From contig DAOWIY010000020.1 of NCBI GenBank assembly GCA_030640665.1, positions 1-34,668 of the forward strand: DNA of 34,668 nt, in the 5' to 3' direction. This stretch comes from Clostridia bacterium (GTDB taxonomy: Bacteria > Aerophobota > Aerophobia > Aerophobales > AE-B3A). The notes below the pieces were generated by a model. That model ran no database searches. It saw only the letters and a program-made list of their open reading frames with translations, and was not told the DNA's origin. Shown one piece after another: positions 1,908 through 29,540 of this stretch. The position numbers were made by a program, and so were the translations under genes. The stretch's first letter is position 1. Every line of letters starts with the position of its first letter.

Positions 1908-1963
1908 TCGTCGCTCGTTGTTCGTATCTCGTATCTCGTATTGCGTGATGCGTATTGCGTATT
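1908..1963 (+). repeat. Degenerate heptamer tandem array (8 units, CG every 7 nt)
   Basis: TCGTCGC TCGTTGT TCGTATC TCGTATC TCGTATT GCGTGAT GCGTATT GCGTATT directly after a stop codon. Confidence 0.9.
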
Positions 1964-2000
1964 TCCTCTCCCCTCTGGGGAGAGGATTGAGGTGAGGGGG
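1964..2000 (+). repeat. REP-like palindromic element (CCTCTCCC...GGGAGAGG...GGTGAGGGG)
   Basis: Hairpin tcctctcccc-tct-ggggagagga plus ggtgagggg tail; related copies at 10381-10409 and 18378-18411. Confidence 0.75.
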
Positions 2001-2038
2001 AAAAAGCCAGTCATTACTTTTATCAGGAGGCAACTTTT

Positions 2039-2269
2039 ATGAAACCAGCTTTATTAAATATTACAGAGATAAAGAGAAAATATCACAATTAATGGGTTCT
2101 CATAGTAGATCCTGTTTATAGTAAAACTCACAAGATAAAAAAGGGGAGAGTCCTTTTCTACAGTGAGGATAGAGAAAAAATTGATAAAGCAATGTTAGAA
2201 AGTAGAGAGAACAATATAGCTATAAGGTATTTAGGTACAGTGGACAAAGATTTATCAGTAATCCTATGA
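2039..2269 (+). pseudogene. Small-protein pseudogene, paralog of 2533..2760 (DUF5678-like)
   Basis: AGGAGG at 2025-2030, ATG 2039, MKPALLNITEIKRKYHN*WVLIVDP...GRVLFYSEDREKI...YLG...; one in-frame TAA at 2090-2092; final TGA overlaps the next ATG (ATGA). Confidence 0.8.
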
Positions 2270-2460
2270 AATATCCTTTTGAAAAGACAGGTTCTTTAAT
2301 AATTATAACCATGAAATTAGAGCATGGTAATAAAACAGCAGATGTAGAAGTAGCCTTAGATACAGGGGCTGTAACCACTATCATAAACAGCAGTATTGCA
2401 GAATATCTAGGTTGTAATCCAGCTGCTTCTCAAAAGAGGAGACGTATAGTAACAGCCTGA
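2266..2460 (+). pseudogene. Truncated retropepsin-like (clan AA) aspartic protease
   Basis: ALDTGA motif; stops at IVTA, where the intact paralog continues ITASG; no GLLG motif. Confidence 0.8.
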
Positions 2461-2532
2461 AGGCTTTCAGAACTCCTCGCAATCAGGCTGTGTCACACAT
2501 TCCGTACCTCAGAACTTATAGAGGAGGCTTTT

Positions 2533-2760
2533 ATGCAAGATAAAATAGAAGACATAATGAAGGAGTATAAGGATGAGTGGCTCTTGATAAAGGTTTTAAA
2601 GACGGATGAATTAGATAGGCCGAGAGAAGGAAAACTGATTTTACACAGCAAAAATAGGGATGAAATTTACGAGAAACAAAGGAAATTGAAAGATGACCTA
2701 TATATAACCTATTCTGGGAAAATTCCTAAAAAAGGATATGCGGTGGCTTTTAATGGCTAA
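2533..2760 (+). CDS. Small protein (DUF5678-like), partner of the downstream protease
   Basis: GAGGAGG RBS; Y-x-x-EWLLI...G-K-LILHS-x-x-RDEIY pattern; overlaps the downstream start. Confidence 0.75.
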   Translation: MQDKIEDIMKEYKDEWLLIKVLKTDELDRPREGKLILHSKNRDEIYEKQRKLKDDLYITYSGKIPKKGYAVAFNG

Positions 2761-3136
2761 GTTAAAGTTCGATCCCAGTCTTCCCGTTATCGTTTTAGAT
2801 GTAACTTTAGAAGGTAAGATAGTAAAAAGAAGGATAAAGATGGCTGTGGATACGGGAGCAACTTACACGATGATTCCATGGGAGATAGCAGAAGCATTGG
2901 GTTATAGACCTGATATCTCTGTACAAAGGGTGACTTTGATCACGGCGAGCGGAATAGAAAGAGCACCTTTAATTAAAATAGATTCGTTAAGAGTATGTAA
3001 TAAAGAAGTTAAGAACGGAAAGGTAATCTGCCATGATTTACCTCAAAAAAGTTATGTTGATGGATTATTAGGTTTAAATACCCTTAAAGAACTTAAGGTA
3101 AAGATAGATTTCGGTGAAGCAACGATAGAAGCCTAA
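2753..3136 (+). CDS. Retropepsin-like (clan AA) aspartic protease
   Basis: AVDTGAT catalytic motif, ITASG flap, DGLLGLN motif; likely start ATG 2753 (MAKLKF). Confidence 0.88.
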   Translation: MAKLKFDPSLPVIVLDVTLEGKIVKRRIKMAVDTGATYTMIPWEIAEALGYRPDISVQRVTLITASGIERAPLIKIDSLRVCNKEVKNGKVICHDLPQKSYVDGLLGLNTLKELKVKIDFGEATIEA

Positions 3137-3244
3137 ACAAGGTTTATTCATCGTTTAATTTTTGGGAATTGTCCAGAAAATGACATAAAATTAAGGAAAA
3201 TTATGAATTCTGTGGTTTTGATATAGGAGACATTCCCGAAATAT

Positions 3245-3288
3245 GTACTTGTAGCTCAGTTGGATAGAGCATCGGATTGCGGATCCGA
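3245..3288 (+). pseudogene. 5' half of tRNA-Arg(GCG)
   Basis: GTACTTG-TA-GCTC-AGTTGGATA-GAGC-A-TCGGA-TTGCGGA-TCCGA gives acceptor 5' strand, D arm and anticodon arm; no T arm or 3' acceptor strand follows. Confidence 0.8.
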
Positions 3289-3404
3289 TTCAAGGCAAAT
3301 TCCAAAAGCAAGACCAGAAGAAGCAAACCTAATTCAGATAAGCTTTCTAGCCAATTTTCTTTTCCTAACCAGTTATATGAATTTATGTGATTTTATAACT
3401 TGCA

Positions 3405-3422
3405 TGGACACTATTTGGACAC
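3405..3422. mobile_element. Putative tyrosine-integrase arm-type site (TGGACAC direct repeat, 11-bp period)
   Basis: tggacac-tatt-tggacac about 120 nt downstream of the tRNA fragment. Confidence 0.45.
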
Positions 3423-3441
3423 CAAAATATAAGGATTAAAA

Positions 3442-3702
3442 ATGAATTATATCCAAATCATAATTGCTATAGTTGCAATATGGGGAGCTGGCTTATCCAC
3501 CTATACAGCTATTAGAAATTCCATAAAAGAAAAGTTTAGGATAAAAGTAGAGTTAGGCTCTGGATTTCTAACAGGTGACAAAATAGCCTTTTTAAAAGCT
3601 GCAAATATAGGTAACCGACCTGTCACTTTATCCTCTTGCGAATTCAGCGTAAAACCAACAATTAAAGAGTATCCAGGAATAGAGGGGAAGAAGATATGCT
3701 AA
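3442..3702 (+). CDS. Hypothetical protein with N-terminal transmembrane helix, possibly truncated
   Basis: AAGGA RBS; hydrophobic IIIAIVAIWGAGLSTYTAI. Confidence 0.6.
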   Translation: MNYIQIIIAIVAIWGAGLSTYTAIRNSIKEKFRIKVELGSGFLTGDKIAFLKAANIGNRPVTLSSCEFSVKPTIKEYPGIEGKKIC

Positions 3703-3899
3703 GGATGGCTGTTGAGTACCTTAGCGATATCCTAGAAAACTGCAAAAAGCTCAAGAACATTTTTAGAGAGAGTATAAAAAAATGCATCTCTTTTATTCCA
3801 GAAATTCTCTACAAGGAAAAAAAGCAAATAGAGGATAAGTTGAATAAGATACCAAAAAATACCAGAACAATCAGAAAAAAGATAGGTTTTGTAGCTTGA
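3696..3899 (+). CDS. Hypothetical protein or gene fragment
   Basis: Short basic ORF overlapping the previous stop; no recognisable motif. Confidence 0.35.
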   Translation: MLRMAVEYLSDILENCKKLKNIFRESIKKCISFIPEILYKEKKQIEDKLNKIPKNTRTIRKKIGFVA

Positions 3900-3923
3900 C
3901 ACTTCAGATTTTTATGCTATCTT
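3896..3923 (+). promoter_or_regulatory. Sigma-70-type promoter
   Basis: TTGACA-N16-TATCTT with TGn extension. Confidence 0.55.
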
Positions 3924-3976
3924 TAAACTAGAATTGACAATTTAATATAGTTATCAGCTCACGCAGGCAGCAATCT

Positions 3977-4039
3977 GGGGGCTGACTCTCAAAGTATTAC
4001 GCTTTTATGTAGTGTTTTGGGGGTCAGCCCCCTTTTTTT
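3977..4039 (+). terminator. Long hairpin plus U-tract (intrinsic terminator, 3' end of candidate sRNA)
   Basis: 24-bp stem 3977-4000/4009-4032, fully paired with G-U wobbles on the + strand, then T7. Confidence 0.85.
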
Positions 4040-4137
4040 ATGGGATTTTCCCATGGGGGACTGGAGAGTTAAAAGAAGAAAGAACAAGAAAGCTCAAGAA
4101 GTTTATTTTTTCAGCTTCGTACATCAAACGTTAACCG

Positions 4138-5505
4138 CTAGCCAAGAAATAATTTCCCCACCTTGTTTATATCCCCTGCGCCTAGAGTAAGTATTAAATC
4201 TCCTTCTTTTGATTCTCTTTTTAAAAAATTGATCATTTCCTTAAAGGTAGGAAAATAATATGTTTGTTTTCTTCGCTTTTCTTTAACTTTTTCAAATAAC
4301 AGTTTTCCGTCTATTCCAGGAAGGGGATTTTCTCCCGCAGCGTAGATGCTGGTTAAAAGAAGAATATCTGCTCTTTCAAAAGAGTGAGCGAATTTAGAAA
4401 GAAGCATTTTAGTTCGGCTGTAACGGTGAGGTTGGAAGATGGCAATTACTCGTCTTCCCAGTCTTGCTGCTGCTTTTAGGGTTACTTCAATCTCGGTAGG
4501 GTGATGAGCATAATCGTCCACTACTAAAATGCCGAATTTTTCTCCTATTACCTCAAACCTTCTTTTTATTCCCTTAAAAAGAGAAAGGGCTTCTTTAATT
4601 TCATTCCATTTTATTCCCAGAGTTATTCCTACGCCAATGCTGGCTAAGGAGTTATATATATTGTGTTTTCCAGGTAAAGAAAGATTTATATTTCCCATAC
4701 TTCTGCCTTTATAGTTAACCTCATAAGAAGAGCCAAATTGTTCCAGTTTTATATTCTCTGCTAAAAGGTGAGCAGGGGAGTTGATTCCATAGATGATTAA
4801 TTTTTGAGAAGCGGCTAAAGAACTTCCTTTTAGAACCTTATCCAGGCCAGGATTATCTTTATTAATAATCAAGGTTCCTCCAGGTTTTAACCTTCTAAGA
4901 AATTGAATAAATGCTCCGAAGAGCCTAGCCTCCGAGCCATAATAGTCCAGATGATCATCTTCTAAGCTTGTAAGAACCGAGATTTTGGGAGAGAGAAATA
5001 AAAAAGAGCCATCAGATTCATCACTTTCTGCCACTACATATTCGCTCTTGCCTAATTGGCTATTGCCGCCAATATCATTAAGTTCCCCCCCAATAAACAT
5101 AGTAGGATTTTTACCTCCTCGGTGAAGAAGCGAGCAGATGAGAGAAGTAGTAGTAGTTTTTCCATGAGTTCCAGCGACAACAATCCCTTCCTTTTCATTG
5201 ACCAGCTCACCCAAAAGGGCACCTCTTGAGATAAGAGGAATTTTTTTTCTTTTTGCTTCTTGAACTTCAGGATTGAGAGAAGGGATGGTGGAAGAGGTTA
5301 CTACTAAGTCGGCTCCTGCAAGATGAGAAGAGATGTGTCCCTGATAAATAGTTGCTCCTCTTTTCTCCAGGTGCTCTGTAAGGGTGTTCTTTTTTCTATC
5401 CGAGCCACTAATGAGGTATCCTTTCTCTAACAGCACTTTAGCTAACCCACTCATTCCAATTCCCCCGATGCCTATAAAATGGATGGATCGAACCCCTTTT
5501 AGCAT
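4138..5505 (-). CDS. murC: UDP-N-acetylmuramate--L-alanine ligase
   Basis: HFIGIGGIGMSGLA, GTHGKTTT, ESDESDGSF, DDYAHHPTE, FQPHRYSR. Confidence 0.97.
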   Translation of the reverse strand: MLKGVRSIHFIGIGGIGMSGLAKVLLEKGYLISGSDRKKNTLTEHLEKRGATIYQGHISSHLAGADLVVTSSTIPSLNPEVQEAKRKKIPLISRGALLGELVNEKEGIVVAGTHGKTTTTSLICSLLHRGGKNPTMFIGGELNDIGGNSQLGKSEYVVAESDESDGSFLFLSPKISVLTSLEDDHLDYYGSEARLFGAFIQFLRRLKPGGTLIINKDNPGLDKVLKGSSLAASQKLIIYGINSPAHLLAENIKLEQFGSSYEVNYKGRSMGNINLSLPGKHNIYNSLASIGVGITLGIKWNEIKEALSLFKGIKRRFEVIGEKFGILVVDDYAHHPTEIEVTLKAAARLGRRVIAIFQPHRYSRTKMLLSKFAHSFERADILLLTSIYAAGENPLPGIDGKLLFEKVKEKRRKQTYYFPTFKEMINFLKRESKEGDLILTLGAGDINKVGKLFLG

Positions 5506-6614
5506 AGCTTTTTCCCCATCTCACAGACTAACTCCGCCATTTTCCTGGCAGCTTGAGGTCTGCCTAACTTCTTACTTTGTCTACTCATTTTTTCAAGCAG
5601 AGGTTTGTTGCCTATTAAGTCTAAAAGTAATTTTTTTAGCCTTTCTTTAGTAAGGTTCTTTTCAATAATAATACAGGCTGCTCCTTTTTCCTGTAGGATT
5701 TTAGCGTTCTTGTATTGATGTCCTTCTGCAGCATAAGGATAAGGGATGAGGATACTGGGTAGTCCCAGGGCAGTAATCTCAGCTATAGCTCCCGCTCCAC
5801 TTCGGCAGATGACCAAGTCAGAAGCGGCGTAAGCATATCGTATTTCCTCTAAGTAGGGAAAAGTCAAGGATTTAATCTCCAAAGATTTAAGGAAGTCTCT
5901 TGCCCATTTTACATCGTTTCTTCCAGTGATAAATATTACCTGAATTTCTGTAGCTATCTTTTCTTTATCTAATAGTTTAATCGCTTCTGCTCCAGATTTA
6001 TTTAGACTGTGAGCTCCTTGACTGCCTCCCAGGAAAAGAAGGGTAAATTTGTTTTTGTCTAAATCGAGCTTCTTTATTCCTTCTTCTCTTTTTGCCTTGA
6101 GAATTTCAGAGCGGATGGGATTACCAATGAGCTGGATCCTATTTTTTACTCTTCGGGACAGATACTCATTTGTTTGAGCCCAACTGGTGGCTATTTTTGA
6201 GGCGTACCAGGAAAGAAACCTGTTGGTAAGGGAGGGATATACATTCTGTTCACATATAAGGCTCCGAATACCAAAAAGGAAAGCAAGCGTCACCACCGGA
6301 TATGAGTGAAAACTACCCATTCCTATTACTATGGACGGTTTAAATTGCCAGAGAATGAGGAAAGATTGGAAAAAGGATACCACCAGGCTTACCCCAAAGC
6401 TGACCCATTTTATAGATAAGGCTCTGGGAAAAGTTTGAGTCTTTATCTGCTTGAATTCAAATCCCTGCAAGGGGATAAGCTCTCTCTCCAAATCTTTTTT
6501 TCCTGCTACCCAGAGGATACGGCTAACTAAATGGTGTTCTTTGAGGTAAGAGGCTATGGCTAAGGCTGGATAAAGATGGCCTCCTGTGCCCCCGGCGGCT
6601 ATTAAGATTCTCAT
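5499..6614 (-). CDS. murG: Lipid II N-acetylglucosaminyltransferase
   Basis: AGGTGGHLYP, EQN, GNPIR, GGSQGA, CRSGA, HQYKNA. Confidence 0.97.
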   Translation of the reverse strand: MRILIAAGGTGGHLYPALAIASYLKEHHLVSRILWVAGKKDLERELIPLQGFEFKQIKTQTFPRALSIKWVSFGVSLVVSFFQSFLILWQFKPSIVIGMGSFHSYPVVTLAFLFGIRSLICEQNVYPSLTNRFLSWYASKIATSWAQTNEYLSRRVKNRIQLIGNPIRSEILKAKREEGIKKLDLDKNKFTLLFLGGSQGAHSLNKSGAEAIKLLDKEKIATEIQVIFITGRNDVKWARDFLKSLEIKSLTFPYLEEIRYAYAASDLVICRSGAGAIAEITALGLPSILIPYPYAAEGHQYKNAKILQEKGAACIIIEKNLTKERLKKLLLDLIGNKPLLEKMSRQSKKLGRPQAARKMAELVCEMGKKLC

Positions 6615-7738
6615 CTTTTCCGCATTCTACTCCTTCTCCAGCTATAAATTACTGGTGTGGCCACAAAAATGGAGGAATATGTTCCTATTACTATTCCTAC
6701 TAAAAGAGCAAAGGCAAATCCATGGATTACGGCTCCTCCCCAGAGGAATAAAATTAGAACCACCAGGAAAGTAGTTAAGGAGGTGATAACCGTGCGAGAT
6801 AAAGACTGATTGATGCCCAGGTTGAGAATCTTTTTAGAGGATGTTCTTTTCTTTCGGTAGACCTCAGAATTTTCCCGAATTCTGTCATAGACAACAATGG
6901 TATCGTTCAAGGAATAGCCAATTATGGTAAGTAGAGCAGCTATTATAGGAAGGGTAAATTCATAACCTCCCAGGGTTAGGGCTCCTACGCTGATGAAGAC
7001 ATCATGAACCAGGGCAACTACTGCTCCCACAGCAAACCTTAACTCAAACCTCCAGGCAATGTAGGCGAGCATGCCTACCAGGGCAAAGATTATGGCTAAA
7101 ATAGCATCTTTCCGAAGCTCCTTACTCACTTGAGGACTTATGAAATTGGAGCCCTCAAGTGAGAATGTGTTTTTTTCTCCCCCAAACTCTTTTTTTATAG
7201 CTTCTTCAATTTTTGCACTTGCTTTTATAGGAATGATGCGGTAAAGAATAAGAGAAGCGAGAGAGTCTTCTGTTGCCTGGTTAATATCAATTCTCTCTTC
7301 TTGGGAGGGGTCAAGGGTGAAGAAATTGGCTAGATTTTCATATCCTAGTGCCTCTATTTCAGGAATATTTTTGAGTTCCTCCAGACTTGTAAATTTACCT
7401 TGTTTTTCTCGATAAGCAATTATTTTTGAGGCTATATTCTGAGAAGCTTCCTCTACTTTATGTTTTATAAGGATAAGATTTTCTTCTTTTCTACCATATT
7501 GCTGTATGACTGCTTTGCTTAAACCAATTTCAGCCAGGACCCCTCTTATCCAAGCAATAGAAGGAGATTCACTGAACTTAAGATGAACTTCAACTCCCCC
7601 TGTGAAGTCCAGGCCCAGTTTTAATCCTCCTCTTGAAATAATCAAAAAAAGAGTAGCGGCTATCATTATCCCTGAGATGATGAAAGCTTTCTTCCTTAAG
7701 GCAATAAAATCTATCTTTGTTTCTCCAAAAAATCGCAT
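6611..7738 (-). CDS. secF: Protein translocase subunit SecF with extracytoplasmic helix-hairpin-helix insertion
   Basis: GLDFTGG, GYSLNDTIVVYDRIRE, SRTVITSLTT, GTYSSIFVA; extra ~70 aa at residues ~97-165. Confidence 0.95.
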   Translation of the reverse strand: MRFFGETKIDFIALRKKAFIISGIMIAATLFLIISRGGLKLGLDFTGGVEVHLKFSESPSIAWIRGVLAEIGLSKAVIQQYGRKEENLILIKHKVEEASQNIASKIIAYREKQGKFTSLEELKNIPEIEALGYENLANFFTLDPSQEERIDINQATEDSLASLILYRIIPIKASAKIEEAIKKEFGGEKNTFSLEGSNFISPQVSKELRKDAILAIIFALVGMLAYIAWRFELRFAVGAVVALVHDVFISVGALTLGGYEFTLPIIAALLTIIGYSLNDTIVVYDRIRENSEVYRKKRTSSKKILNLGINQSLSRTVITSLTTFLVVLILFLWGGAVIHGFAFALLVGIVIGTYSSIFVATPVIYSWRRSRMRKR

Positions 7739-7749
7739 TAGAGTTTCTC

Positions 7750-9065: not shown

Positions 9066-9267
9066 AATTCGTTGCTCGTTGCTCGCCTCTCGTCGATTAA
9101 TCTTTTTGATTAAGTTTGTGAACATATGAGATTCGTGATCAATTTTTTCCAAATATACTCTTTTTTCTTTTCATTATTTATAACTCGTATTTTGTTATTC
9201 GTACCTTGTCAATCATTTATTTTTTTCTTCTTTTCGAGATACGAACGACGAGCAACGAGATACGAAT
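9066..9267. repeat. Inverted pair of heptamer arrays (9066-9095, 9235-9267) enclosing a putative four-helix-bundle 3' remnant
   Basis: aattcgttgctcgttgctcg... and ...cgagatacgaacgacgagcaacgagatacgaatt; minus strand between them reads LEKIDHESHMFTNLIKKIN. Confidence 0.8.
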
Positions 9268-9346
9268 TGGTCGGGGCGACCGGATTCGAACCGGTGACCT
9301 CTTGCGCCCCATGCAAGTGCGCTAAACCAGGCTGCGCTACGCCCCG
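9268..9346 (-). tRNA. tRNA-Pro(GGG)
   Basis: CGGGGCG acceptor, CTTGC-ATGGGGC-GCAAG anticodon arm, GTTCGAATC T loop, encoded CCA. Confidence 0.97.
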
Positions 9347-9460
9347 AAGTATTTTTTAGGTCTATTTATACGCTTACCGAAAGACATTCCTCGAAGAAGC
9401 TGAGTAGAAATAATCCAAAGCGGATATACAGCGACAGAGAGGAATTGTCCTGAGGTACTC

Positions 9461-9799
9461 TTATTCTAATATCTGAAGTGTCTCTTGCAGTTCTTTTTTT
9501 ATAATAAGAGGGTCAAGCCAATCTTTTCTTTGTCTGTCTCTTAGTTCTTTTCGAGCCCCATTAATGGTGAATTTCTTTTCATATAATAGATTTTTTATCC
9601 AGAGAACCAATTCAACATCTTTTTTTTGGTAACGTCGATGTCCACCGCGACTTTTTTGAGGACGAAGCTCCTTGAATTGAGTTTCCCAAAAACGAAGGAT
9701 ATAAGGAGGAAGATGAGTAATCTTACTTACTTCTCCTATACAAAAATATTTATCTGGGATAATATCTCTCTGCTCCTTATTTTCACTATTTTGAAGCAT
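9461..9799 (-). CDS. MerR-family HTH transcriptional regulator
   Basis: YFCIGEVS...ILRFWETQF...GGHRRY; familiar IHF/HU-merR-tRNA-Pro(GGG) synteny. Confidence 0.93.
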   Translation of the reverse strand: MLQNSENKEQRDIIPDKYFCIGEVSKITHLPPYILRFWETQFKELRPQKSRGGHRRYQKKDVELVLWIKNLLYEKKFTINGARKELRDRQRKDWLDPLIIKKELQETLQILE

Positions 9800-9830
9800 A
9801 GGAATACATTATCATATCGATGTATTTTTT

Positions 9831-10009
9831 GAGACCAGGCCTAACATTTCGTTGTTCGTTGCTTGTATCTCGTATCTCGTAAAAAGACTTTAAGGCAAAC
9901 AACAAAATACAGAAGGGCGCTGCAAGAAGTTCGACACTCAAAATTCAAAAAACTTGATTGACGAGATGCGAACAACGAGATACGAGTGACGATGTTTAGG
10001 CCTGGTCTC
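9831..10009. repeat. Composite inverted repeat: 14-bp perfect IR flanking two inverted heptamer arrays
   Basis: gagaccaggcctaa (9831-9844) / ttaggcctggtctc (9996-10009); arrays at ~9848-9890 and 9961-9992. Confidence 0.88.
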
Positions 10010-10040
10010 TCTTTTAAAATTTCTCCTTAGAATAATTCCT

Positions 10041-10313
10041 TTAGGCTACCGCTTCTTTTAAATTCTTACCTGGTTCAAATTTAGGAACATCTTTAGCCGG
10101 AATCTGGATCTCCTTACCCGTTTGAGGATTTCTTCCTCGACGTGCTTTTCTCTTCCTCACTTTAAAACTTCCAAAGCCAACTAAGGTGATTTTCTCTCCT
10201 CTAGCCAGAGAGTCAGTGATGGTTGAGGTTATCGCATCTATTGCCTCTCTACATACCCTCTTTGTTAAACCCACCTGACCGGCTACTTCTCCTACCAACT
10301 CAGCTTTGTTCAT
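10041..10313 (-). CDS. hup: Histone-like DNA-binding protein HU
   Basis: MNKAELV, GFGSF, GRNPQTG, PKFEPGK. Confidence 0.95.
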   Translation of the reverse strand: MNKAELVGEVAGQVGLTKRVCREAIDAITSTITDSLARGEKITLVGFGSFKVRKRKARRGRNPQTGKEIQIPAKDVPKFEPGKNLKEAVA

Positions 10314-10333
10314 TCTCTCCTCCTTTATTTATT

Positions 10334-10455
10334 TAGCGTAGAGCGCATAGCGTTTAGTGGATAGTATCGCTTCGCTCCATTTCCTCTCCCACAAAAAATA
10401 GGGTGAGGGTTATTTTTGTCTTTCCTAAACGCTATACGCTACCCGCTATTCGCTA
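10334..10455. repeat. Inverted pair of TAG-phase heptamer arrays enclosing a degenerate REP-like copy (10381-10409)
   Basis: TAGCGTA GAGCGCA TAGCGTT TAGTGGA ... CTAAACG CTATACG CTACCCG CTATTCG CTA. Confidence 0.82.
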
Positions 10456-11076
10456 TATTTTCACTTTCTCTCCAATTTTTCTCTCTTTCCCTCTCAGAAG
10501 TCGTTCTATGTTGCTTCGATGTCTAAATAAAATAAGAGAAGCTCCCATTATACTTAGAGTAAGGCAAAATTGAGCTTTACTTGGCATCCAGAACCAAATG
10601 AAAAAAGGTAGACTCCCTGCCGCCATCATTGAGCCGAGGGAGACATAGCGGGTAAAAACTATCACTCCCACCATCATTAGAGCGGAGAATAGAAAAGGGA
10701 AAGGAGTAAGGATTAAAAATACACCAGCTGTTACAGCTACTCCTTTTCCTCCTCTGAATTTTAAAAATATAGGCCAATTATGTCCTAGGATAGATAAGAG
10801 TCCAGATATTCCACCGGTTACTTGAGGAGCAAATCCAAGGAGTGGTGCAAGAAGGATTCCTAAGTAGACGGAAACTACTCCTTTTGCTATATCTATAGTT
10901 AGTACTAAGAGACCAGGGAAAAGTCCTAAAACACGCAAAGCATTGGCAAATCCTACATTACCGCTGCCAAAATCTCTTATATCTATTTTTTTAAGAAGTT
11001 TCCCTATCAGGTAGCCCGAAGGAATAGAGCCCAAAAAGTAACCTATAATTAAAATCAACGAAAAAATAATAATCAT
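10453..11076 (-). CDS. plsY: Glycerol-3-phosphate acyltransferase PlsY
   Basis: YFLGSIP, DIRDFGSGNVG, GHNWPIF, FRGGKGVA, RHRSNI. Confidence 0.96.
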   Translation of the reverse strand: MIIIFSLILIIGYFLGSIPSGYLIGKLLKKIDIRDFGSGNVGFANALRVLGLFPGLLVLTIDIAKGVVSVYLGILLAPLLGFAPQVTGGISGLLSILGHNWPIFLKFRGGKGVAVTAGVFLILTPFPFLFSALMMVGVIVFTRYVSLGSMMAAGSLPFFIWFWMPSKAQFCLTLSIMGASLILFRHRSNIERLLRGKERKIGEKVKI

Positions 11077-13451: not shown

Positions 13452-13502
13452 TGTATAGTTAGTTAGTTATTTTCTTATCTTCACCTAACGATATTAACGA
13501 CA

Positions 13503-14123
13503 TTAACATTTCAAAAGCATCCTCATACTGTTTTCCAATTTCTTATGGAGTCTCTCTATGGAGGTTTTAACATCTTCTTTTTTAGATTTCTTACCTCTTA
13601 AGGGTTCTCCTATCCGCGCCTCTATCTTAGCTAATCTTATCATCTTTTTTCCTCTAGGCAAGACCTTTTCTGTTCCTCGAATAATGACAGGCACTAAGGG
13701 CACGTTTGCTCTAAGAGCTATTCTCGCTGTTCCTTGCTGCAGGCGTCCAAGTTTTCCTTCCCAGCTTCTTGTTCCTTCTGGAAAAAGAACGAGGAGTTCT
13801 CCTTTTTTTAAAAGATCCAAAACCTTTTGGTAGACTGTTTTATCTACTCTTTCTCTTTTAACGGGAAAAGCTCCTAGTTTGGTTATTAAAAGACGAAAAA
13901 GAAAATTTTCAAAGAGCTCTTCTTTAGCCATAAAATTAATCTTGCGGGGAGCGAGAAGACCTAAGACAATAGGGTCAAAATAACTTAGGTGATTAGAAGC
14001 AAGAATTGCTCCCCCTTTTAAAGGAACATTCTCTTTTCCCCGGATCTTTACGGCAAAGAAAACTTTAAAGATTATTATAGCCGGTCCCCGCAACAGACTA
14101 TACCAAAGGGGAGTTTCTTTCAT
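13503..14123 (-). CDS. plsC: 1-acyl-sn-glycerol-3-phosphate acyltransferase
   Basis: NHLSYFD and FPEGTRS motifs. Confidence 0.93.
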   Translation of the reverse strand: MKETPLWYSLLRGPAIIIFKVFFAVKIRGKENVPLKGGAILASNHLSYFDPIVLGLLAPRKINFMAKEELFENFLFRLLITKLGAFPVKRERVDKTVYQKVLDLLKKGELLVLFPEGTRSWEGKLGRLQQGTARIALRANVPLVPVIIRGTEKVLPRGKKMIRLAKIEARIGEPLRGKKSKKEDVKTSIERLHKKLENSMRMLLKC

Positions 14124-15930: not shown

Positions 15931-16010
15931 GATATCTCGTATATCGTATTTAGTACTTCGTTTCTCTTTTTTCTTTTCGAGTTACGAGCGACGAGCAACA
16001 AGCGACGATT
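15931..16010. repeat. Inverted pair of heptamer arrays, one overlapping the ilvD 3' end
   Basis: tctcgtatatcgtatttagtacttcg (~15935-15960) and cgagttacgagcgacgagcaacaagcgacga (15978-16008). Confidence 0.78.
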
Positions 16011-17674: not shown

Positions 17675-17845
17675 TAGCGTTTAGCGTATAGTTTTTCCAG
17701 CTGTAAACAATAAGGGGTAAGCGGTAATCTTCTTTTTTCACGAAGTACGATGTACGAAGTACGATGTACGAATTTATGTGCTCGGGTCGGCTTCGAATCC
17801 CCTTTTCTCTCTTGCTATTCACTATTCACTAAATACTAACGACTA
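17675..17845. repeat. Nested heptamer arrays: inverted TAG-phase pair (17675-17692, 17815-17845) around a CG-phase array (17739-17775)
   Basis: tagcgtttagcgtatagt; cgaagta cgatgta cgaagta cgatgta cgaattt; ctattca ctattca ctaaata ctaacga cta. Confidence 0.82.
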
Positions 17846-23475: not shown

Positions 23476-23486
23476 AGGGGGAAAAA

Positions 23487-24170
23487 ATGCGTAAATTTGC
23501 TGTTATAGGATTGGGTGGATTTGGCGGCACGGTTGCACAAAGTTTGGCAGAAAGAGGAGCAGAAGTAATTGCTGTAGATAAAGATAGTAGCTTAGTGGAT
23601 AAATTTGCCCAAATAGTGACCCTAGCAGTTAAGTTGGATTCTACAGATGAAGAGGCCCTGAAGGCTCAGGGAATAAATGAGGTAGATGTAGCTATAGTGA
23701 GTATAACAGATTTTGAGACTTCGGTACTGACTACAGCTCTGCTCAAACGATTAGGAGTACCCATAGTCATTACCAGAGCTTCTCAATCTCCTTCTCGTAT
23801 TGAGGAGCGAATATTGGATCTTGTAGGAGCGGATAGGGTGATTTTGCCGGAAGTGGAGATGGGTAAAAGGATAGCTAAAAACCTTTTAGTTTCCAATATT
23901 CTAGACTATCTGCCTATTTCTGAGAAATATAGTGCTGCTGAAATTCGAGCTCCCAAGTCTTTCTGGGGCAAAAAGATAGGCGATCTTAAAATTCGGGAAA
24001 GATATAAAGTGAACATATTAGAAATGAAGAAAATATCGGGAGAAGGAAAAGAAGAGCGGGTAGAGAAAGTAAGCTATCTTCCCCACCCCAATGATGTTAT
24101 TGGAAAAGGAGATATACTACTGGTGATTGGGGAGGAGAAAGACATCGAGCGTCTGTCAAAAGGAGAATAA
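23487..24170 (+). CDS. KtrA/TrkA RCK regulatory subunit
   Basis: FAVIGLGGFG Rossmann fold, GADRVILPE, C-terminal RCK_C. Confidence 0.93.
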   Translation: MRKFAVIGLGGFGGTVAQSLAERGAEVIAVDKDSSLVDKFAQIVTLAVKLDSTDEEALKAQGINEVDVAIVSITDFETSVLTTALLKRLGVPIVITRASQSPSRIEERILDLVGADRVILPEVEMGKRIAKNLLVSNILDYLPISEKYSAAEIRAPKSFWGKKIGDLKIRERYKVNILEMKKISGEGKEERVEKVSYLPHPNDVIGKGDILLVIGEEKDIERLSKGE

Positions 24171-24227
24171 ATTCGTTGCTCGTGAAGAAAAAAGCGGATG
24201 ATTAAAAGCTTTAGAGATTTGGAAATC
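24170..24227 (+). pseudogene. Short heptamer arm followed by a putative 5' remnant of a four-helix-bundle (TIGR02436-like) gene
   Basis: aattcgttgctcgtgaagaaaaaag, then ATG 24198 MIKSFRDLEI, after which similarity stops. Confidence 0.55.
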
Positions 24228-24262
24228 GTGTTATGCTTCAAGCAGGAAAGGAGGGAGAAAAA

Positions 24263-24493
24263 ATGTGGGTTTTGGTGCTGCGGATAATGGCTTATTTTTT
24301 TGGGATAGTAGGGGGACTGAGTTTAGTAACTGGCGTAATATTGCGGGTAGCAAAGGGGCCGCAGGGATCTATTTTTTTTGAAATCCAGCCCAATGCTTAT
24401 CTGGGATTTTCGCAGGTTTGTTTATTGTTTGCCATTGCTTTGGGAATAGCAGCAATACTGGAAAGAAAAGAGGGAAAGAAAAAGAAAAAGTAA
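24263..24493 (+). CDS. Small two-TM membrane protein
   Basis: GGAG RBS, ATG 24263, two hydrophobic segments, basic tail. Confidence 0.7.
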   Translation: MWVLVLRIMAYFFGIVGGLSLVTGVILRVAKGPQGSIFFEIQPNAYLGFSQVCLLFAIALGIAAILERKEGKKKKK

Positions 24494-24508
24494 CTAAATA
24501 CTAAATCA

Positions 24509-24595
24509 GCCGGGATGGCGGAAGTGGTAGACGCGCATGGTTGAGGGCCATGTGGACATTAGTCCATGGGGGTTCAAATCCCCCTCCCGGCACCA
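24509..24595 (+). tRNA. tRNA-Leu(GAG)
   Basis: GCCGGGA acceptor, CATGG-TTGAGGG-CCATG anticodon arm, long variable arm, encoded CCA. Confidence 0.97.
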
Positions 24596-24637
24596 AATTC
24601 GTCGCTCGCTACTCGTTGCTCGTATCTCGTGAAAAAA
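24596..24637 (+). repeat. Heptamer array abutting the tRNA CCA
   Basis: aat TCGTCGC TCGCTAC TCGTTGC TCGTATC TCGTGAA aaaa. Confidence 0.85.
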
Positions 24638-24684
24638 TTTCCTCTAACTTGCCTCTTATAGCTTAAAGCTTGCTTAAAAAGAAA

Positions 24685-25812
24685 ATGAATAGAGATGCTA
24701 TTATTACCTCTGCGAAAAGAGTAACTATTAAAGTAGGTAGTAGTCTTCTACTAACCGAAGAAGGCGATCCTGACCTTTACTTCATGGAAGGATTAGCTGA
24801 GGATGTTGCTACCTTGATTAGGAAAGGCAAAGAGGTTATTCTAGTTAGTTCGGGGGCTATTGGTATGGGAAGGGAGGAGTTAGGAACAGAAATGGGGAGA
24901 AAATACAATACCATTTCTTCCAAGCAGGCTCTTGCCAGCATAGGACAAACTCGTTTGATGAATATGTACTATCAACTTTTTCAAAAATATAATCTTTCTG
25001 TTGGCCAAGTGCTTTTAAGTGGAGTTGATCTTTCCCATCGTTCTTCCTATCTAAACGCTCGCAATACTTTCTTTACTCTTCTTAGGCTTAAGACTATTCC
25101 CATTGTCAATGAGAATGATACTGTAGCTGTGGAAGAGATTAAGTTTGGTGATAATGATACCCTTTCCGCTTTAGTGGCTGGGTTAGTGAACGCAGATCTT
25201 TTAATAATCTTCTCAGACATAAAAGGTTTATATACTTCTGATCCGAGGAAAAATCCAGAGGCGCGATTAATTAAACAAGTAAGAGAGATAGACAAAGATA
25301 TAGAAGAGATAGCCTCTAGTACATCAGTAGAGGGAAGGATAGGGGGGATGCAGACTAAAATCAAGGCAGCTAAAATAGCTACTCGTTCCGGTATTCCAGT
25401 AGTTGTAGGCGGAAGAAAGAGAAGTTTTCTCAAAGAGGTTTTTGCGGGAAAGGAGGTGGGAACATTGTTCCTGCCTCAGAAGGGTAGTCTAGCTTCTCGT
25501 GAAAAGTGGATTGCCTACGGGCACTTTCTTGAGGGTGCGATTATAGTGGATGAGGGCGCAAAGGGGGCATTAGTCAAAGAAGGAGGAAGCCTTCTTCCTG
25601 CTGGTGTAGTTGGGGTGAAAGGTGAGTTTGAAGCTGGAGACTCCATAAGTTTATTAGACAAAGAAAGAAAAGAATTCGCTCGAGGCATAGCCTATTATTC
25701 CTCTCAAGATATAAAAAAGATAAAAGGAATGAAAAGCTCTTTTATTGAATCACAGTTAGGATATAAGTATCATGACGAAGTTGTCCATCGCGATAATTTG
25801 GTGATACTATAA
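24685..25812 (+). CDS. proB: Glutamate 5-kinase with PUA domain
   Basis: IKVGSS, VSSGAI, PIVNEND, FGDNDTLSA, GGMQTK, VVHRDNL; start 24685 or 24670. Confidence 0.96.
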   Translation: MNRDAIITSAKRVTIKVGSSLLLTEEGDPDLYFMEGLAEDVATLIRKGKEVILVSSGAIGMGREELGTEMGRKYNTISSKQALASIGQTRLMNMYYQLFQKYNLSVGQVLLSGVDLSHRSSYLNARNTFFTLLRLKTIPIVNENDTVAVEEIKFGDNDTLSALVAGLVNADLLIIFSDIKGLYTSDPRKNPEARLIKQVREIDKDIEEIASSTSVEGRIGGMQTKIKAAKIATRSGIPVVVGGRKRSFLKEVFAGKEVGTLFLPQKGSLASREKWIAYGHFLEGAIIVDEGAKGALVKEGGSLLPAGVVGVKGEFEAGDSISLLDKERKEFARGIAYYSSQDIKKIKGMKSSFIESQLGYKYHDEVVHRDNLVIL

Positions 25813-26853
25813 ATGGACTATCGCAGGATACAGAGCCGTGGTTGGAGGAAGCTCTTCCTTCTGATTCTTTTTCTTTTTTCTCTTTTCTTTCTATGTGGTT
25901 GTGGCGAGAACCTCCAACCCGTTGTTTTTCCCCTAAAAGAACCTTATCTTGCCTACTTTTCCCCCAAAAATTCTCTTTATCCTCATCTTGTCTATTTAAT
26001 TCGAGAAGCTAGAGAAAGTGTCTATGCTGCTTTTTATAAGATAGAGCTAAAGGAAGTATCTCGTGCTCTCATTGAAGCTCATGAAAGAGGGGTGGAGGTG
26101 AGGGTATTTACTGATGATCTGACTTCCTATGATAAAGGATCTCAATTTGGCGAGCTGAATGAGTTTCATCTCATTAAAAAGGACAAAGACCCAGAGAGTC
26201 TTATGCATCATAAATTTTGCCTCATTGATGAGGAAATAGTCTGGACAGGTTCTTTTAATCCTACTTCAAAAGGGTCCTTCAAGGAGAACAATAATGTAGT
26301 GGTTATAAAATCCCGGGCTTTGGCTGCCGAATTTATGAAAGAGTTTGAGAAATTATGGGAGGGAAAACCATCATCTCCTGCTAATTTTTCTCACTCTCAA
26401 ATTTCACTAAGTGGAGCCCAGGCAGAGGCTTACTTCTCTTTGCATGATAATCCTGAAGAGGCTATCATTAGAGAACTAGAGAAAGCTAAAGAGAGTATAC
26501 ATTTTGCTCTTTTTACTTTCACCTCTCCAGAAATTGCTCATGCTCTTATTCACAAATTTGCAGAAAATGTGGAAGTGAAGGGAATAATGGAGAAGGAACA
26601 GGATAGTTCCTTCTCTCGATATCGTTCTTTAAAGAAACTGAGGATGCCTGTAGAGCAGGATGGAAATTTCTATTTTATGCACCATAAGTTCTTTATAATT
26701 GATAAAAAGATTGTTATCACCGGTTCTTTTAATCCTACCTGGCGCGCCAACTATCAGAATCGAGAAAATCTTCTCATAATTCAGAGTTCTTCCCTGGCTG
26801 CTCAATACGAAGAGGAGTTCTATAGGTTGTGGAAGGAAGCAGTGAAAAGATAA
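25813..26853 (+). CDS. Phospholipase D-superfamily lipoprotein (two HKD motifs)
   Basis: Lipobox-like FLCGC; HHKFCLID...TGSFN and HHKFFIID...TGSFN. Confidence 0.88.
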   Translation: MDYRRIQSRGWRKLFLLILFLFSLFFLCGCGENLQPVVFPLKEPYLAYFSPKNSLYPHLVYLIREARESVYAAFYKIELKEVSRALIEAHERGVEVRVFTDDLTSYDKGSQFGELNEFHLIKKDKDPESLMHHKFCLIDEEIVWTGSFNPTSKGSFKENNNVVVIKSRALAAEFMKEFEKLWEGKPSSPANFSHSQISLSGAQAEAYFSLHDNPEEAIIRELEKAKESIHFALFTFTSPEIAHALIHKFAENVEVKGIMEKEQDSSFSRYRSLKKLRMPVEQDGNFYFMHHKFFIIDKKIVITGSFNPTWRANYQNRENLLIIQSSSLAAQYEEEFYRLWKEAVKR

Positions 26854-26867
26854 AAGGAGAAAGAAAA

Positions 26868-28259
26868 ATGCAAGTAGCTAAAGAGAGTATAGAGCGTAGT
26901 ATTTTAGAGACCTATGAAAATAGCTTTCCATCCTCGCGAAAGTTATACAAGAAGGCATTGAATCTATTTCCCAATGGGATAACTCATGACAATAGGTTTC
27001 TAAAGCCCTTTCCTATTTATGTTGATCATGCCCTGGGAAGCAAAAAATGGGATGAGGATGGCAATGAATATATTGATTATTTTGGAGGTCATGGTGCACT
27101 ACTCTTAGGGCATGGACATCCTAAAGTGGTAGAGGCGGTAAAAAGACAAATTACAAGAGGTACGCACTATGGTGCTTGTCACCGCCTAGAGGTGGAATGG
27201 GCAGAATTGATAATGGATATGGTTCCCTCGGCACAGAAAGTTAGATTTGTCAATTCCGGAACAGAGGCTACTCTTATGGCTATAAGGCTAGCTAGAATTT
27301 TTACTGGCAAAAGTAAAATTCTCAAATTTGCCGGACATTTCCATGGTTGGCACGACAATCTGATTCCAGGAACTACTCCTCCCTATGAGCTATCTCTACC
27401 GGGAATACTGAATGGCGTCCTGGAGAGTATCATTGTATGTCCACCTAACGATATTAAAAGAGTAGAGAAGATCCTGCAAAAGGATAATGAGGTAGCTTCC
27501 GTAATTATTGAACCTACAGGGGCGAGTTTTGGGATGATACCTACGCGTGAGGGGTTTCTTAAAGAACTTCGTCAGGTTACAAGAAAGTGGGGAGTTTTAC
27601 TTATTTTTGACGAGCTTATTACTGGTTTTAGATGCGCTCGGGGTGGTGCTCAAGAATATTATGGGGTGATGCCAGATCTTACCACTCTTGGTAAGATACT
27701 TGCTGGAGGACTTCCGGGTGCAGCTGTAGCTGGAAGAGGAGATATACTTGAGCCTTTGGAGAGCAGGGAGGACGAGAAGTGGAATCTCGGCAAGAAAATG
27801 TTTCACTACGGTACTTTTAACGCCAACCCACTTTCTGCTTCTGCTGGTATTGCTACTCTAAAAATTGTAGCCACTGGCGAGCCTATCTCCAGAGCAAATA
27901 AAATGACTTCAATGCTGATAAAAGGTATGAATGAAGTCATTGACAAGCACAGGATTCCCTGGTGTGTCCATGGTGAATTTTCAGGTTTTAGATTCCTCTT
28001 AAATCATGCTTGTTACAAGAGAGCTTCCTGTAATTTCCGCAAGTGTGACTATGATTACAAAAAGCTCAAAGGGGCCAATGATCCTGTCCTGGTGCAGAAT
28101 TTGCGTTGTGGTATGCTTCTGAATGGGATTGATGTTGCCAAGCAGGGGGGTTGGGTTTCTGCAGCCCATTCTGCCGAGGATGTAGAAAAAACCATTGTAG
28201 GCTTTGATAGAACTATTGACTGGATGAAGAGGAGTAAGCTTTTAACGAGTTTTGATTGA
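26868..28259 (+). CDS. Class III PLP aminotransferase, glutamate-semialdehyde-aminomutase-like
   Basis: DEDGNEYID, FVNSGTEA, FHGWHD, LIFDELITGFR, LGKILAGG, GTFNANP; AAAGGAG RBS before ATG 26868. Confidence 0.88.
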   Translation: MQVAKESIERSILETYENSFPSSRKLYKKALNLFPNGITHDNRFLKPFPIYVDHALGSKKWDEDGNEYIDYFGGHGALLLGHGHPKVVEAVKRQITRGTHYGACHRLEVEWAELIMDMVPSAQKVRFVNSGTEATLMAIRLARIFTGKSKILKFAGHFHGWHDNLIPGTTPPYELSLPGILNGVLESIIVCPPNDIKRVEKILQKDNEVASVIIEPTGASFGMIPTREGFLKELRQVTRKWGVLLIFDELITGFRCARGGAQEYYGVMPDLTTLGKILAGGLPGAAVAGRGDILEPLESREDEKWNLGKKMFHYGTFNANPLSASAGIATLKIVATGEPISRANKMTSMLIKGMNEVIDKHRIPWCVHGEFSGFRFLLNHACYKRASCNFRKCDYDYKKLKGANDPVLVQNLRCGMLLNGIDVAKQGGWVSAAHSAEDVEKTIVGFDRTIDWMKRSKLLTSFD

Positions 28260-28283
28260 CAGAAGACGGGTTTGTGATAAAAT
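28256..28283 (+). promoter_or_regulatory. Sigma-70-type promoter for the manC-pepP-efp-acc block
   Basis: TTGACA-N16-TAAAAT with TGn extension. Confidence 0.55.
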
Positions 28284-28374
28284 ACCTAATGGGGATAAAG
28301 ACGTAAATATTCAGTAGTATACGTGCTTTAGTGAATATTTACTTAAAGGCAAAAAGAACTGGTAGGAGTGAGAT

Positions 28375-29454
28375 ATGAGCGTAGCTGTGATAATGGCGGG
28401 AGGACTGGGGAAAAGATTATGGCCAGAGAGTAGAGTAACTCACCCCAAGCAACTTCTCAGTTTAGAAGAAAAAGAAAGTTTCCTTCAAGCAACTTACAGG
28501 AGAGCTTCTAACCTTTTTGGCTCGGAGAATGTATATCTGGTAATAAGAGAAGAATTAAAGCAGGCAGTGATAGCTCAGCTTCCAGGGATCTGTCTGGATA
28601 ATATCATTGCAGAACCTCAAGGAAAAGATACTGCTCCTTGCATTGGTTTTGCTAGTACTTGGATAAAGAAAAAAAGAGGGGACGATTCTATGGCGGTGCT
28701 TCCTGCCGACCACTTGATAAGGAACGAGAAAAGGTTTGCTCAGATTATTTTGGCGGCAGTCGAACAAGCGGAAAAAGGTTTTTTAATAACCATTGGCATT
28801 AAGCCTACCCGCGCTGAGACTGCCTATGGATATCTTCAGATAGGAGACCAGTTGGAGGATTTAGATGGAATTCCTCTTTTTGCAGTAAAGAGATTTACAG
28901 AAAAACCTTCTCAGAAAAAAGCTAAAGAGTTTTTTGAACAGGGAAATTTTCTCTGGAATGCAGGGATCTTTGCCTGGAAACCGACTACTATTTTGAAACA
29001 GATAGAAATGTATCTTCCAGATCTTCATCAGGGATTAATGAGGATTGAAAAGGCTTTAGGAACAAAGGAAGAGAAGAAGATAATAAGAGAAGTTTACCTT
29101 TCTCTTCCTAAAATTTCCATTGATTATGGGATAATGGAAAAGGCCTCTTCGGTAGTAGCAGTCCCAGGGGATTTTTTTTGGGATGATATAGGCAACTGGG
29201 GTGCCCTGGAACGAATATTTGCCAAGGATGAAGAAGGAAATATTGTCAAAGGATTAGTACAGAAGAGGGGAAGCAGCGACTGTATATTGATAAATAGAGA
29301 GGATAAGATTTTGGGAGTTATAGGAGTCTCTAATTTAATTATCATAAATACAGAAAAGGGTGTCCTTGTTGTAAGGAAAGAAATGGCTCACAAAGTGAAG
29401 GATTTGATGAACGAGCTCTTAGGGGATGAGAAGTTAAAAGAGTATCTACAGTGA
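28375..29454 (+). CDS. manC: Mannose-1-phosphate guanylyltransferase (no PMI domain)
   Basis: MAGGLGKRLWPES..PKQ, EPQGKDTA, PADH, FTEKP, WNAGIF, ISIDYGIME, WDDIG. Confidence 0.92.
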   Translation: MSVAVIMAGGLGKRLWPESRVTHPKQLLSLEEKESFLQATYRRASNLFGSENVYLVIREELKQAVIAQLPGICLDNIIAEPQGKDTAPCIGFASTWIKKKRGDDSMAVLPADHLIRNEKRFAQIILAAVEQAEKGFLITIGIKPTRAETAYGYLQIGDQLEDLDGIPLFAVKRFTEKPSQKKAKEFFEQGNFLWNAGIFAWKPTTILKQIEMYLPDLHQGLMRIEKALGTKEEKKIIREVYLSLPKISIDYGIMEKASSVVAVPGDFFWDDIGNWGALERIFAKDEEGNIVKGLVQKRGSSDCILINREDKILGVIGVSNLIIINTEKGVLVVRKEMAHKVKDLMNELLGDEKLKEYLQ

Positions 29455-29460
29455 ATCAAG

Positions 29461-29540
29461 TTTAGCGTTTAGCGTATAGCGTATAGTGGATACGGCGAGG
29501 CGCTCTAGAGCTTAGAAAAACTACTCTAATACAACTAATA
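29461..29540. repeat. TAG-phase heptamer array with decayed inverted partner
   Basis: TAGCGTT TAGCGTA TAGCGTA TAGTGGA TA; weak cta-phase remnant before the pepP start. Confidence 0.72.

Follow-up and report, generated by a model that had tools for sequence, protein, structure and literature searches.

The DNA analysed here, called the window throughout, is an entire 34.7-kb contig (C28) of a metagenome-assembled genome (MAG) of Candidatus Aerophobetes, labelled G000, and it carries dispersed tandem arrays of heptamers. An earlier note, made from the letters of the DNA alone, had interpreted these arrays as the termini or scars of a cassette-like element. Our analysis supports that interpretation through a cargo gene in related genomes, a decayed cassette at 9066-9268 of the window that keeps a remnant of this gene, and filled and empty alleles of the same sites. 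We propose, with a probability of roughly 0.75, that the arrays are the arms of cassettes of the intervening-sequence (IVS) type, or the remains of such cassettes.

In relatives, the complete unit comprises an upstream arm of ~4-5 heptamers, a short 5' untranslated region (UTR) with a Shine-Dalgarno sequence, a ~120-aa gene of the PF05635/TIGR02436 family, a short 3' UTR and a downstream arm with the reverse-complement sequence of the upstream one, the complementary arms being ~30 nt long. The flanking host genes are co-oriented, and cassettes follow immediately on a stop codon or the 3' end of a tRNA; at one site, the cassette lies in the loop of a host hairpin. The window holds derivatives only—a decayed cassette with a gene remnant, gene-less hairpins, and solo arms.

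Intact cassettes enclose a four-helix-bundle gene in related genomes

Our survey of Aerophobetes covered 31 genomes, 11 of which carried PF05635, and yielded 16 intact genes. The array-rich relatives considered were the sister genomes G002 and G001, the genomes G003 and G006, and G009; the five array-bearing relatives gave 2, 2, 8, 1 and 5 PF05635 matches. Every intact PF05635/TIGR02436 gene in relatives lies between inverted tandem arrays, so a shared cargo, whose absence the earlier note would have taken as a sign of plain slippage, is present. The best flank period (at least 15/21, in at least one flank) was 7 nt for 13 of the 16 intact genes, 8 nt for one and 9 nt for another, and the remaining locus is cut by a contig end. 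The cargo proteins match TIGR02436 (‘four helix bundle protein’), with 2gsc as the nearest solved structure. The inner boundary motif seen earlier at the arms in the window, CTCGTAAGAAAAG..ATG, corresponds to the 5' UTR and start of the PF05635 gene.

Protein clades go with units of their own. Proteins with the signature RDLDIWKKGIE are flanked by family A units (CGTATCT, CGTTGTT, CGTCGCT, CGTTGCT), KDLIVWQKAY by family B (CGTATAG, CGTTTAG, CGGGTAG), EKLNVYNKANE by GTTCATA and KNIKVWQKAHE by AAGCTAT, among others. We rejected this match as proof of recognition, because gene and arms are inherited together. At one relative locus (L118; G003:C1, 1330-1480), the upstream arm and 5' UTR of a family B cassette occur in three tandem copies at 63-nt spacing before one four-helix-bundle gene.

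A tblastn search of G000 with the 16 proteins of the relatives returned three remnants, one in the window (Table 1) and the others on contigs C66 (E=1e-10) and C83 (E=4e-4). The window remnant spans 29 aa, with 65.5% identity to the C-terminus of the intact gene at a relative locus (L110). Read along the minus strand from 9268 to 9066, the order is tRNA-Pro CCA, family A arm, AAAAGAAG...ATG ATT GAC AAG, ~90 nt, the C-terminal stretch, the complementary arm and the secD ribosome-binding site (RBS). The spacer (9093-9234) thus retains the start codon of the cargo gene, in the ATG ATT GAC AAG near 9210-9221, and its last ~29 codons. The C-terminal and 3' UTR stretch is colinear with loci L110 and L111, as are the arms and the start remnant. 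At the upstream arm, the A of AATTCG is the last base of tRNA-Pro, and the inner end, CTCGAAAAGAAG, is the cassette 5' UTR.

Period-7 arrays across the genome

A period-7 array was present at or within a few bases of each coordinate listed in the earlier note, and its proposed genome-wide scan extended the observation to all of G000. Chains of at least three CG dinucleotides numbered 104 at a spacing of 7 nt, compared with 5, 10, 18, 7, 28, 13, 5 and 16 at spacings of 4-6 and 8-12 nt; for chains of at least four, the figures were 56 versus 0-4. An anchor-free self-match scan gave 62 regions at lag 7 and 29 at lag 14, with 1-10 at the other lags from 3 to 13, and 7 was also the commonest period called by Tandem Repeats Finder (186 of 771 rows). 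The excess of period 7 across the genome lies far beyond chance. Two looser searches, a low-threshold generic lag scan and a CG chain with one miss allowed, gave too much noise for cataloguing the arrays.

Units are drawn from a small vocabulary: the 288 units comprise 50 distinct heptamers, the eight commonest of which account for 197 units. Besides families A and B there are family C (CGTATTG and others), family D (CGTACAT/CGTACTT) and families without CG, such as GTTCATA, AAGCTAT and TAGTGAA. The proposal that period rather than sequence is maintained therefore holds between families, clades and phyla, but not within a family, where sequence is strongly conserved and units are few. An exact 23-mer of three units is found in seven copies in G000 and is present in two genera whose genes are 72-78% identical. 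Together with the differing occupancy of orthologous sites between the genera (see below), the recurrence of this 23-mer argues for continuing spread rather than vertical conservation.

Array boundaries followed the pattern described earlier. Among 100 oriented arrays, 23 have AATT before the first CG, which gives the outer AATTCG. Fifteen of the 100 place their first CG 1-10 nt past a co-oriented stop codon or the end of a tRNA, and in 11 the first CG overlaps the stop, as opposed to 0 and 1 in the flipped-orientation control, and 7 of 19 tRNA genes have an array at most 21 nt from their 3' end. In 20 neighbouring pairs (within 700 nt), the inner ends face each other in 11, with the other three arrangements accounting for three each.

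CpG is depleted in G000 (observed/expected, 0.53; GpC, 1.01), so the heptamer arrays stand out as CpG islands. Array variants often show CG changed to TG or CA, or CTAG in place of the CG anchor.

Array loci in the window

The MAG carrying the window comprises 1.01 Mb in 116 contigs, with an estimated completeness of 84.5% and 40% G+C. The IlvD encoded in the window is 79-81% identical to proteins from Candidatus Aerophobetes MAG loci, and near-identical DNA is present in cold-seep and marine-sediment metagenomes from nine studies. Gene content is ordinary housekeeping (secDF, murC/G, rpsA, ispH, cmk, ilvD, rny, trkAH, proB, efp, accBC, three tRNAs), and Rfam at gathering thresholds returned the three tRNAs and no other match.

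Table 1 Arrays, cassette derivatives and associated repeats in the window
Coordinates	Strand	Feature	Remarks
1905..1966	+	Solo arm	Docked on the stop of an HMGL-like gene (TAA 1904-1906)
1966..2003	+	G-rich hairpin, a second small dispersed repeat	Form CCTCTCCCC-N3-GGGGAGAGG-ATTGAGGTGAGGGGG
9066..9094	+	Downstream arm of decayed cassette, family A	Outer end AATTCG faces secD RBS and start codon
9078..9164	-	Remnant of clade-A PF05635 gene	Last ~29 codons and 3' UTR; tblastn E=1.3e-5
9235..9268	-	Upstream arm of decayed cassette, family A	Docked on tRNA-Pro CCA end
9843..9995	-	Gene-less cassette between HU and merR	Family A arms 9847-9881 and 9959-9993
10329..10457	-	Gene-less cassette, plsY stop to HU start	Family B arms (TAGCGTA-type) 10331-10362 and 10425-10457
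13452..13512		Small TTAGTTA/TAAC-type inverted insert between ispH and plsC	Not listed in the earlier note
15931..15962	+	Arm, CGTATAT/CGTACTT-type family	Head-to-head with the 15978 arm, no pairing
15978..16008	-	Family A arm overlapping ilvD end	Last 8 ilvD codons and TAA stop (15982-15984) are array sequence
17675..17692	+	Short family B arm	Just upstream of ilvD RBS
17739..17775	-	Family D arm (CGTACAT/CGTACTT)	14-nt super-period; outer end AATTCG
17811..17845	-	TAG-anchored array (TAGTGAA type)	Directly 3' of tRNA-Ala
24170..24190	+	Two-unit solo-arm scar	Begins at trkA stop codon
24596..24632	+	Solo family A arm	Begins one base past tRNA-Leu CCA; inner end CTCGTGAAAAAA
29459..29493	+	Solo family B arm	Begins 5-7 nt past TGA of mannose-1-phosphate guanylyltransferase-like gene

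At least five loci in the window had been taken for inverted pairs. Three of them consist of complementary arms of one family (9066/9235, 9848/9961 and 10334/10425), whereas at 15931/15978 and 17675/17739 the opposed arms belong to different families and do not pair. The idea that paired arms form long hairpins was borne out for the three complementary pairs by predicted folding, with minimum free energies of -46.2, -39.7 and -44.8 kcal/mol (z = -4.1, -2.1 and -6.5); the two mixed-family pairs gave no folding signal (z = 0.1 and -1.5).

The arm at 1905 begins with AATTCG and continues with eight CG-anchored heptamers, running from family A (CGTCGCT, CGTTGTT, CGTATCT) into family C (CGTATTG, CGTGATG). 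The 153-nt cassette at 9843-9995 lies within a host hairpin, in the loop between the stems 9832-9842 and 9996-10009, and the spacer of the neighbouring family B pair is G-rich and hairpin-like. IlvD homologues match residues 1-550 of 558, the frame's final eight codons running into the family A array. Family B arrays at the 17675 site occur in two relative loci as well (L001 and L003), with different unit numbers.

Several further repeats and reading frames accompany the arrays. The G-rich hairpin repeat, in the general form CCTCTCCCC-N3-GGGGAGAGG-ATTRAGGTGAGGGGG, has 21 copies in G000, including those at 1966-2003 and 10378-10411 of the window; about half lie in or beside heptamer arms, in every case on the stretch that separates the two partner arms, and the others stand alone between genes. 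A fragment, GGGGATTCGAAGCCGACCCGAGCAC, recurs between pairs of co-oriented arms that belong to different families, in the window (17780-17805, minus strand), on G000 C55, on G002 C178 and on G003 C2. It resembles a tRNA 3' half, an assignment that we rejected because the T-stem is missing. A dispersed repeat of ~64-100 nt, CCTCGGGACAATTTTCTTCTGTCGCTGTATATCCGCTTTGGATTATTTCT.CTCAGCTTCTTCG..., is found at 9347-9465 (minus strand) and in ~12 copies in G000, several of them at contig ends. All five relatives have dozens of copies of it, and it is missing from the 9347-9465 site in G003/G006 and in one population contig; it has no Rfam match at the gathering threshold and could mark the terminus of a larger mobile element. 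The open reading frames (ORFs) at 24233-24493 (86 aa) and 33309-33830 (173 aa) have no Pfam match, and the former is not present between trkA and tRNA-Leu in G003/G006.

Occupancy differs between sister genomes and within populations

The earlier note had suggested comparing orthologous intergenic regions for filled and empty sites. We aligned the window site by site to G002 (95-99% identity in flanking genes), G001 (85-91%) and genus g2 (72-78%). Occupancy differed between sister genomes (Table 2) and also within natural populations.

Table 2 Occupancy of orthologous intergenic sites
Site	Window	G002	G001	G003/G006
merR-HU	241-nt cassette	241-nt cassette	66 nt, plain hairpin	87 nt, plain hairpin
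HU-plsY	Family B pair	Pair of another family	15 nt	50 nt
tRNA-Pro-merR	Unrelated 64-nt repeat	TTAGTTA-type pair, 217 nt	TTAGTTA-type pair, 125 nt	5 nt
trkA end	2-unit scar	Deletion including native stop	Full 189-nt inverted pair	Own stop, no array
secD-tRNA-Pro	Decayed cassette	Degenerate arm and G-rich hairpin	Arm and HicA/HicB pair	

One empty allele comes from a 461-nt contig of run X9 (record 23) that is more than 99% identical to the window. It aligns to 9725-9842 and 9996-10329, with 3 mismatched bases in 452 nt, the two parts being joined through 9 nt. This allele is a simple hairpin, GAGACCAGGCCT-loop-AGGCCTGGTCTC, which places the 153-nt cassette in a hairpin loop. Other population contigs skip 10329-10453, 9348-9461 (with 4 nt instead) or 13453-13512, where AAGTT takes the place of the small inverted insert, and a 14-nt deletion at 17740, equal to two units, was seen in two runs. 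These alleles were read from assembled contigs at a likeness of at least 90%, a procedure in which rare variants and strand information are lost.

At the trkA end, we considered and rejected a stop codon supplied by the element: in the outgroups G003 and G006, TrkA has the identical ending, ...LSKGE and stop, with no array behind it. The stop thus belongs to the host gene itself, and the ‘empty’ allele of G002 is derived, having arisen by a deletion of both stop and cassette. At the tRNA-Leu end, an array is present in all five relatives examined, with a different unit order.

Other gene pairs occupy some of these sites. In G001, HicA/HicB (assigned by Pfam) lie directly behind the solo arm at the secD-tRNA-Pro site (G001:C105; L105, 1126-1549), and in G002 a DUF433 and DUF5615/PIN-like pair lies behind a solo arm at the tRNA-Leu-proB site (G002:C178; L161, 3720-4318). 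Both sites appear to be general insertion hotspots, for pairs of the toxin-antitoxin type too.

The same packaging surrounds PF05635 genes in other phyla

We sampled 301 genomes from the cyanobacterial phylum, of which 115 carried PF05635. Our set outside Aerophobetes comprised 34 loci: the 30 best-scoring cyanobacterial ones, one per genome, and four from Omnitrophota, Latescibacterota and Desulfarculaceae. A 7-9-nt periodicity (at least 16/21) marked 52 of 68 PF05635 flanks, as against 10 of 390 control windows from the same loci, and the two flanks showed inverted complementarity at 26 of the 34 loci (controls, 1/263).

Over all 48 cassettes, 73 arms had a median of 4.3 units (interquartile range 3.8-4.6) and a period of 7 in 51 arms, 8 in 19 and 9 in 3. 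Where both arms were called, they shared one unit and stayed complementary in 26 of 30 cassettes. Unit sequence changes freely across cassette clades and phyla, while the period stays at 7, less often at 8 and rarely at 9. Unit similarity was high only above 70% protein identity (0.84, 13 pairs) and at background (0.26-0.34) for lower identities. Neighbouring genes tend to be co-oriented with the cargo, upstream in 12/12 and downstream in 14/15 cases in Aerophobetes, and in 25/32 and 27/33, respectively, in the other phyla.

We also tried the idea that the units act as frame-independent stop arrays, in which tandem units of 7 or 8 nt with a stop triplet would block every reading frame, and rejected it. 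A sense-strand stop occurs in 20 of 30 distinct upstream units compared with 16.7 +/- 2.2 after letter shuffling, a difference that is not significant (185 of 2000 shuffles reach 20). Family A units lack a stop triplet of the frame-closing kind.

One Omnitrophota locus (L168, genome G044) carries a PF05635 gene 65% identical to the clade-A protein of Aerophobetes, between arms with the family A-like unit AGTCGCT. Judged by this likeness, the locus hints at cassette transfer between phyla.

A model of the cassette and its alternatives

The arrangement suggests how such a cassette might be accommodated. It would be transcribed by read-through from the host operon, and its arms would pair in the RNA, forming a ~30-bp stem that would seal the insert away and set the host stop codon beside the following start. 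The stem would probably be cut by RNase III, as in rRNA IVSs; G000 encodes an RNase III. The cassette would then be a tolerated selfish insert. The comparisons above show its decay to gene-less and solo forms, and changes in unit number, which slippage probably causes.

Why a period should outlast its sequence may be explained by the cargo itself, although we consider the following idea doubtful and draw it from analogy. Solved relatives of the four-helix-bundle protein are pentamers, and TRAP binds GAG repeats. The pentameric protein might bind its own arm in single-stranded form, one protomer per unit, in a TRAP-like manner. If so, protomer spacing would set the 7-8 nt period, the ~4-5 units per arm would be accounted for, and each protein clade would evolve its own unit. 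Gene and arms would form a self-recognising unit, mobile or self-regulating, across bacterial phyla, and long-unexplained heptamer repeats of bacteria, including those of cyanobacteria, would be its arms and scars.

Several observations weigh against the IVS-type interpretation. A PF05635 profile search of G000, a genome that is 84.5% complete, gave 0 matches and no intact gene, so that its >100 arrays either persist without the gene or the gene sits in unassembled DNA. In the genomes searched, no transposase, recombinase or reverse transcriptase was consistently linked to the cassettes, and no target-site duplication was seen at the filled and empty sites compared, leaving mobility to be read from occupancy alone. 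The solo arms and mixed-family pairs do not fold (z = 0.1 to +2.0), and a role as hairpins is inapplicable to them. The 23S rRNA of G006, the sole one assembled among five genomes, contains no array. Contigs of RNA run X19 (90-95% likeness; rpsA, ispH and other genes) carried no information on arm processing. As to the numbers, the docking counts rest on crude ORF calls used as gene calls, and the 30 cyanobacterial loci are the best scorers of a hidden Markov model search in related genomes, which are not independent samples.

Among the alternatives, we regard as unlikely that the hairpins are RNA elements of benefit to the host—intercistronic terminators, attenuators, processing sites or stabilisers—with the gene as an occasional passenger. 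Arrays do fill intergenic gaps from stop codon to the next RBS, the stems are stable in predicted folds, the merR-HU cassette stands where relatives have a plain terminator-like hairpin, and the array at the tRNA-Leu 3' end recurs in all five relatives examined. But occupancy varies between genomes that are 96-98% identical and within populations, sister genomes have different families at the same site, no U-tract follows the stems, and solo arms are unstructured. Four differences separate the cassettes of the window and of G002, and two of these destroy CG anchors, as neutral decay predicts. Plain minisatellite slippage, arising independently at each site, is hardly credible. Unit number varies at orthologous sites and the 14-nt indel at 17740 segregates, yet slippage can yield neither the same few unit families at ~100 sites nor the excess of pairs with facing inner ends, and it cannot explain docking at stop codons or an enclosed homologous gene. 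As the sole cause slippage is refuted; as the source of unit-number changes it is likely.

The inverted doublets with short spacers, dispersed between genes, also recall repetitive extragenic palindrome (REP) doublets, or REPINs, moved in trans by a RAYT (Y1 transposase), or miniature inverted-repeat transposable elements (MITEs) moved by another transposase. Y1_Tnp genes do occur in G003 (3 matches) and G006 (4 matches). We nonetheless hold this origin to be very improbable: the arms are tandem arrays of variable length rather than fixed terminal repeats, and the enclosed gene is not a transposase. We rejected a RAYT/REPIN system because PF01797 is missing from G000 and from three of the five array-rich relatives (0 matches in G000, G001, G002 and G009, all of them array-rich MAGs that are 69-85% complete), and the MITE class because arm length is variable and filled sites lack a target-site duplication relative to empty ones, the search for a parent transposon not being exhaustive. 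A retroelement link via the Avd-like cargo was rejected as well, RVT_1 being found only in G001 and G002, with 0 matches in G000, G003 and G006.

Relation to known repeat systems

ORF-bearing IVSs are known from the 23S rRNA of Coxiella burnetii and Leptospira, and these are the closest counterparts of the cassettes. They share the PF05635 family (intact in relatives, a remnant in the window), inverted repeats that form a stem around the ORF, a position in a hairpin loop (one site here), tandem heptamers in the arm next to the ORF, and, as our model would have it, co-transcription with the host. In the Coxiella S23p IVS, the stem formed by its terminal inverted repeats is cut by RNase III, and two to three tandem heptamers (GACAGAT), variable among strains, lie upstream of the ORF, the first of them at the RNase III site (PMC4990558). 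Unlike these IVSs, the cassettes described here lie between protein genes and after tRNAs, with no window copy in 23S rRNA; their arms are built entirely from 4-5 heptamers, several families of units exist side by side, the gene has been lost from most copies, and RNase III cleavage is presumed by analogy.

Heterocystous cyanobacteria reportedly contain short tandemly repeated heptanucleotides (STRRs), a description that goes back to Mazel et al. in 1990. Like the present arrays, these are tandem heptamers of several families dispersed in intergenic DNA, and sampled cyanobacterial PF05635 genes are flanked by arrays of this kind, for example of ACAGGTG and TTAGGGG types. Phylum and units differ from those of the STRRs (STRR1-3). 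We found no literature tying STRRs to a gene. Nor did we find a paper that links heptamer arrays with the PF05635 family in general, the Coxiella heptamers being the single case, in a search that extended neither to subscription journals nor to supplementary files.

REP and REPIN sequences (PMC3116915) resemble the cassettes as hairpin-forming inverted doublets, present in many copies between genes and at gene ends. They differ in that RAYT was not found in four of six array-rich genomes, in that the arms here are tandem arrays, and in that the full form encloses a gene other than a transposase. For DGRs (diversity-generating retroelements), a survey describes PF05635 as resembling, or equates it with, Avd (PMC10053308). 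Our cargo proteins share distant homology with Avd, but they score at only 29-37 bits with the DGR Avd model NF033474, whose cut-off is 80 bits. Reverse transcriptases do not occur consistently, and neither template nor variable repeats were seen.

Implications

On the reading that we favour, the element in the window is a non-rRNA, largely degenerate variant of an IVS-type four-helix-bundle cassette. This packaging seems widespread, yet undescribed as a class. It would give a specific source for short tandem repeats that abound between bacterial genes and have lacked an explanation, and would tie PF05635/TIGR02436, a widespread Avd-related family of unassigned function, to a defined nucleic-acid partner. 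G000 adds an end state, with >100 arms and no intact gene found, together with naturally occurring alleles, filled and empty, by which one insertion can be located to the loop of a hairpin. The rRNA intervening sequences would then be one niche of a broader type of cassette lodged between operon genes.

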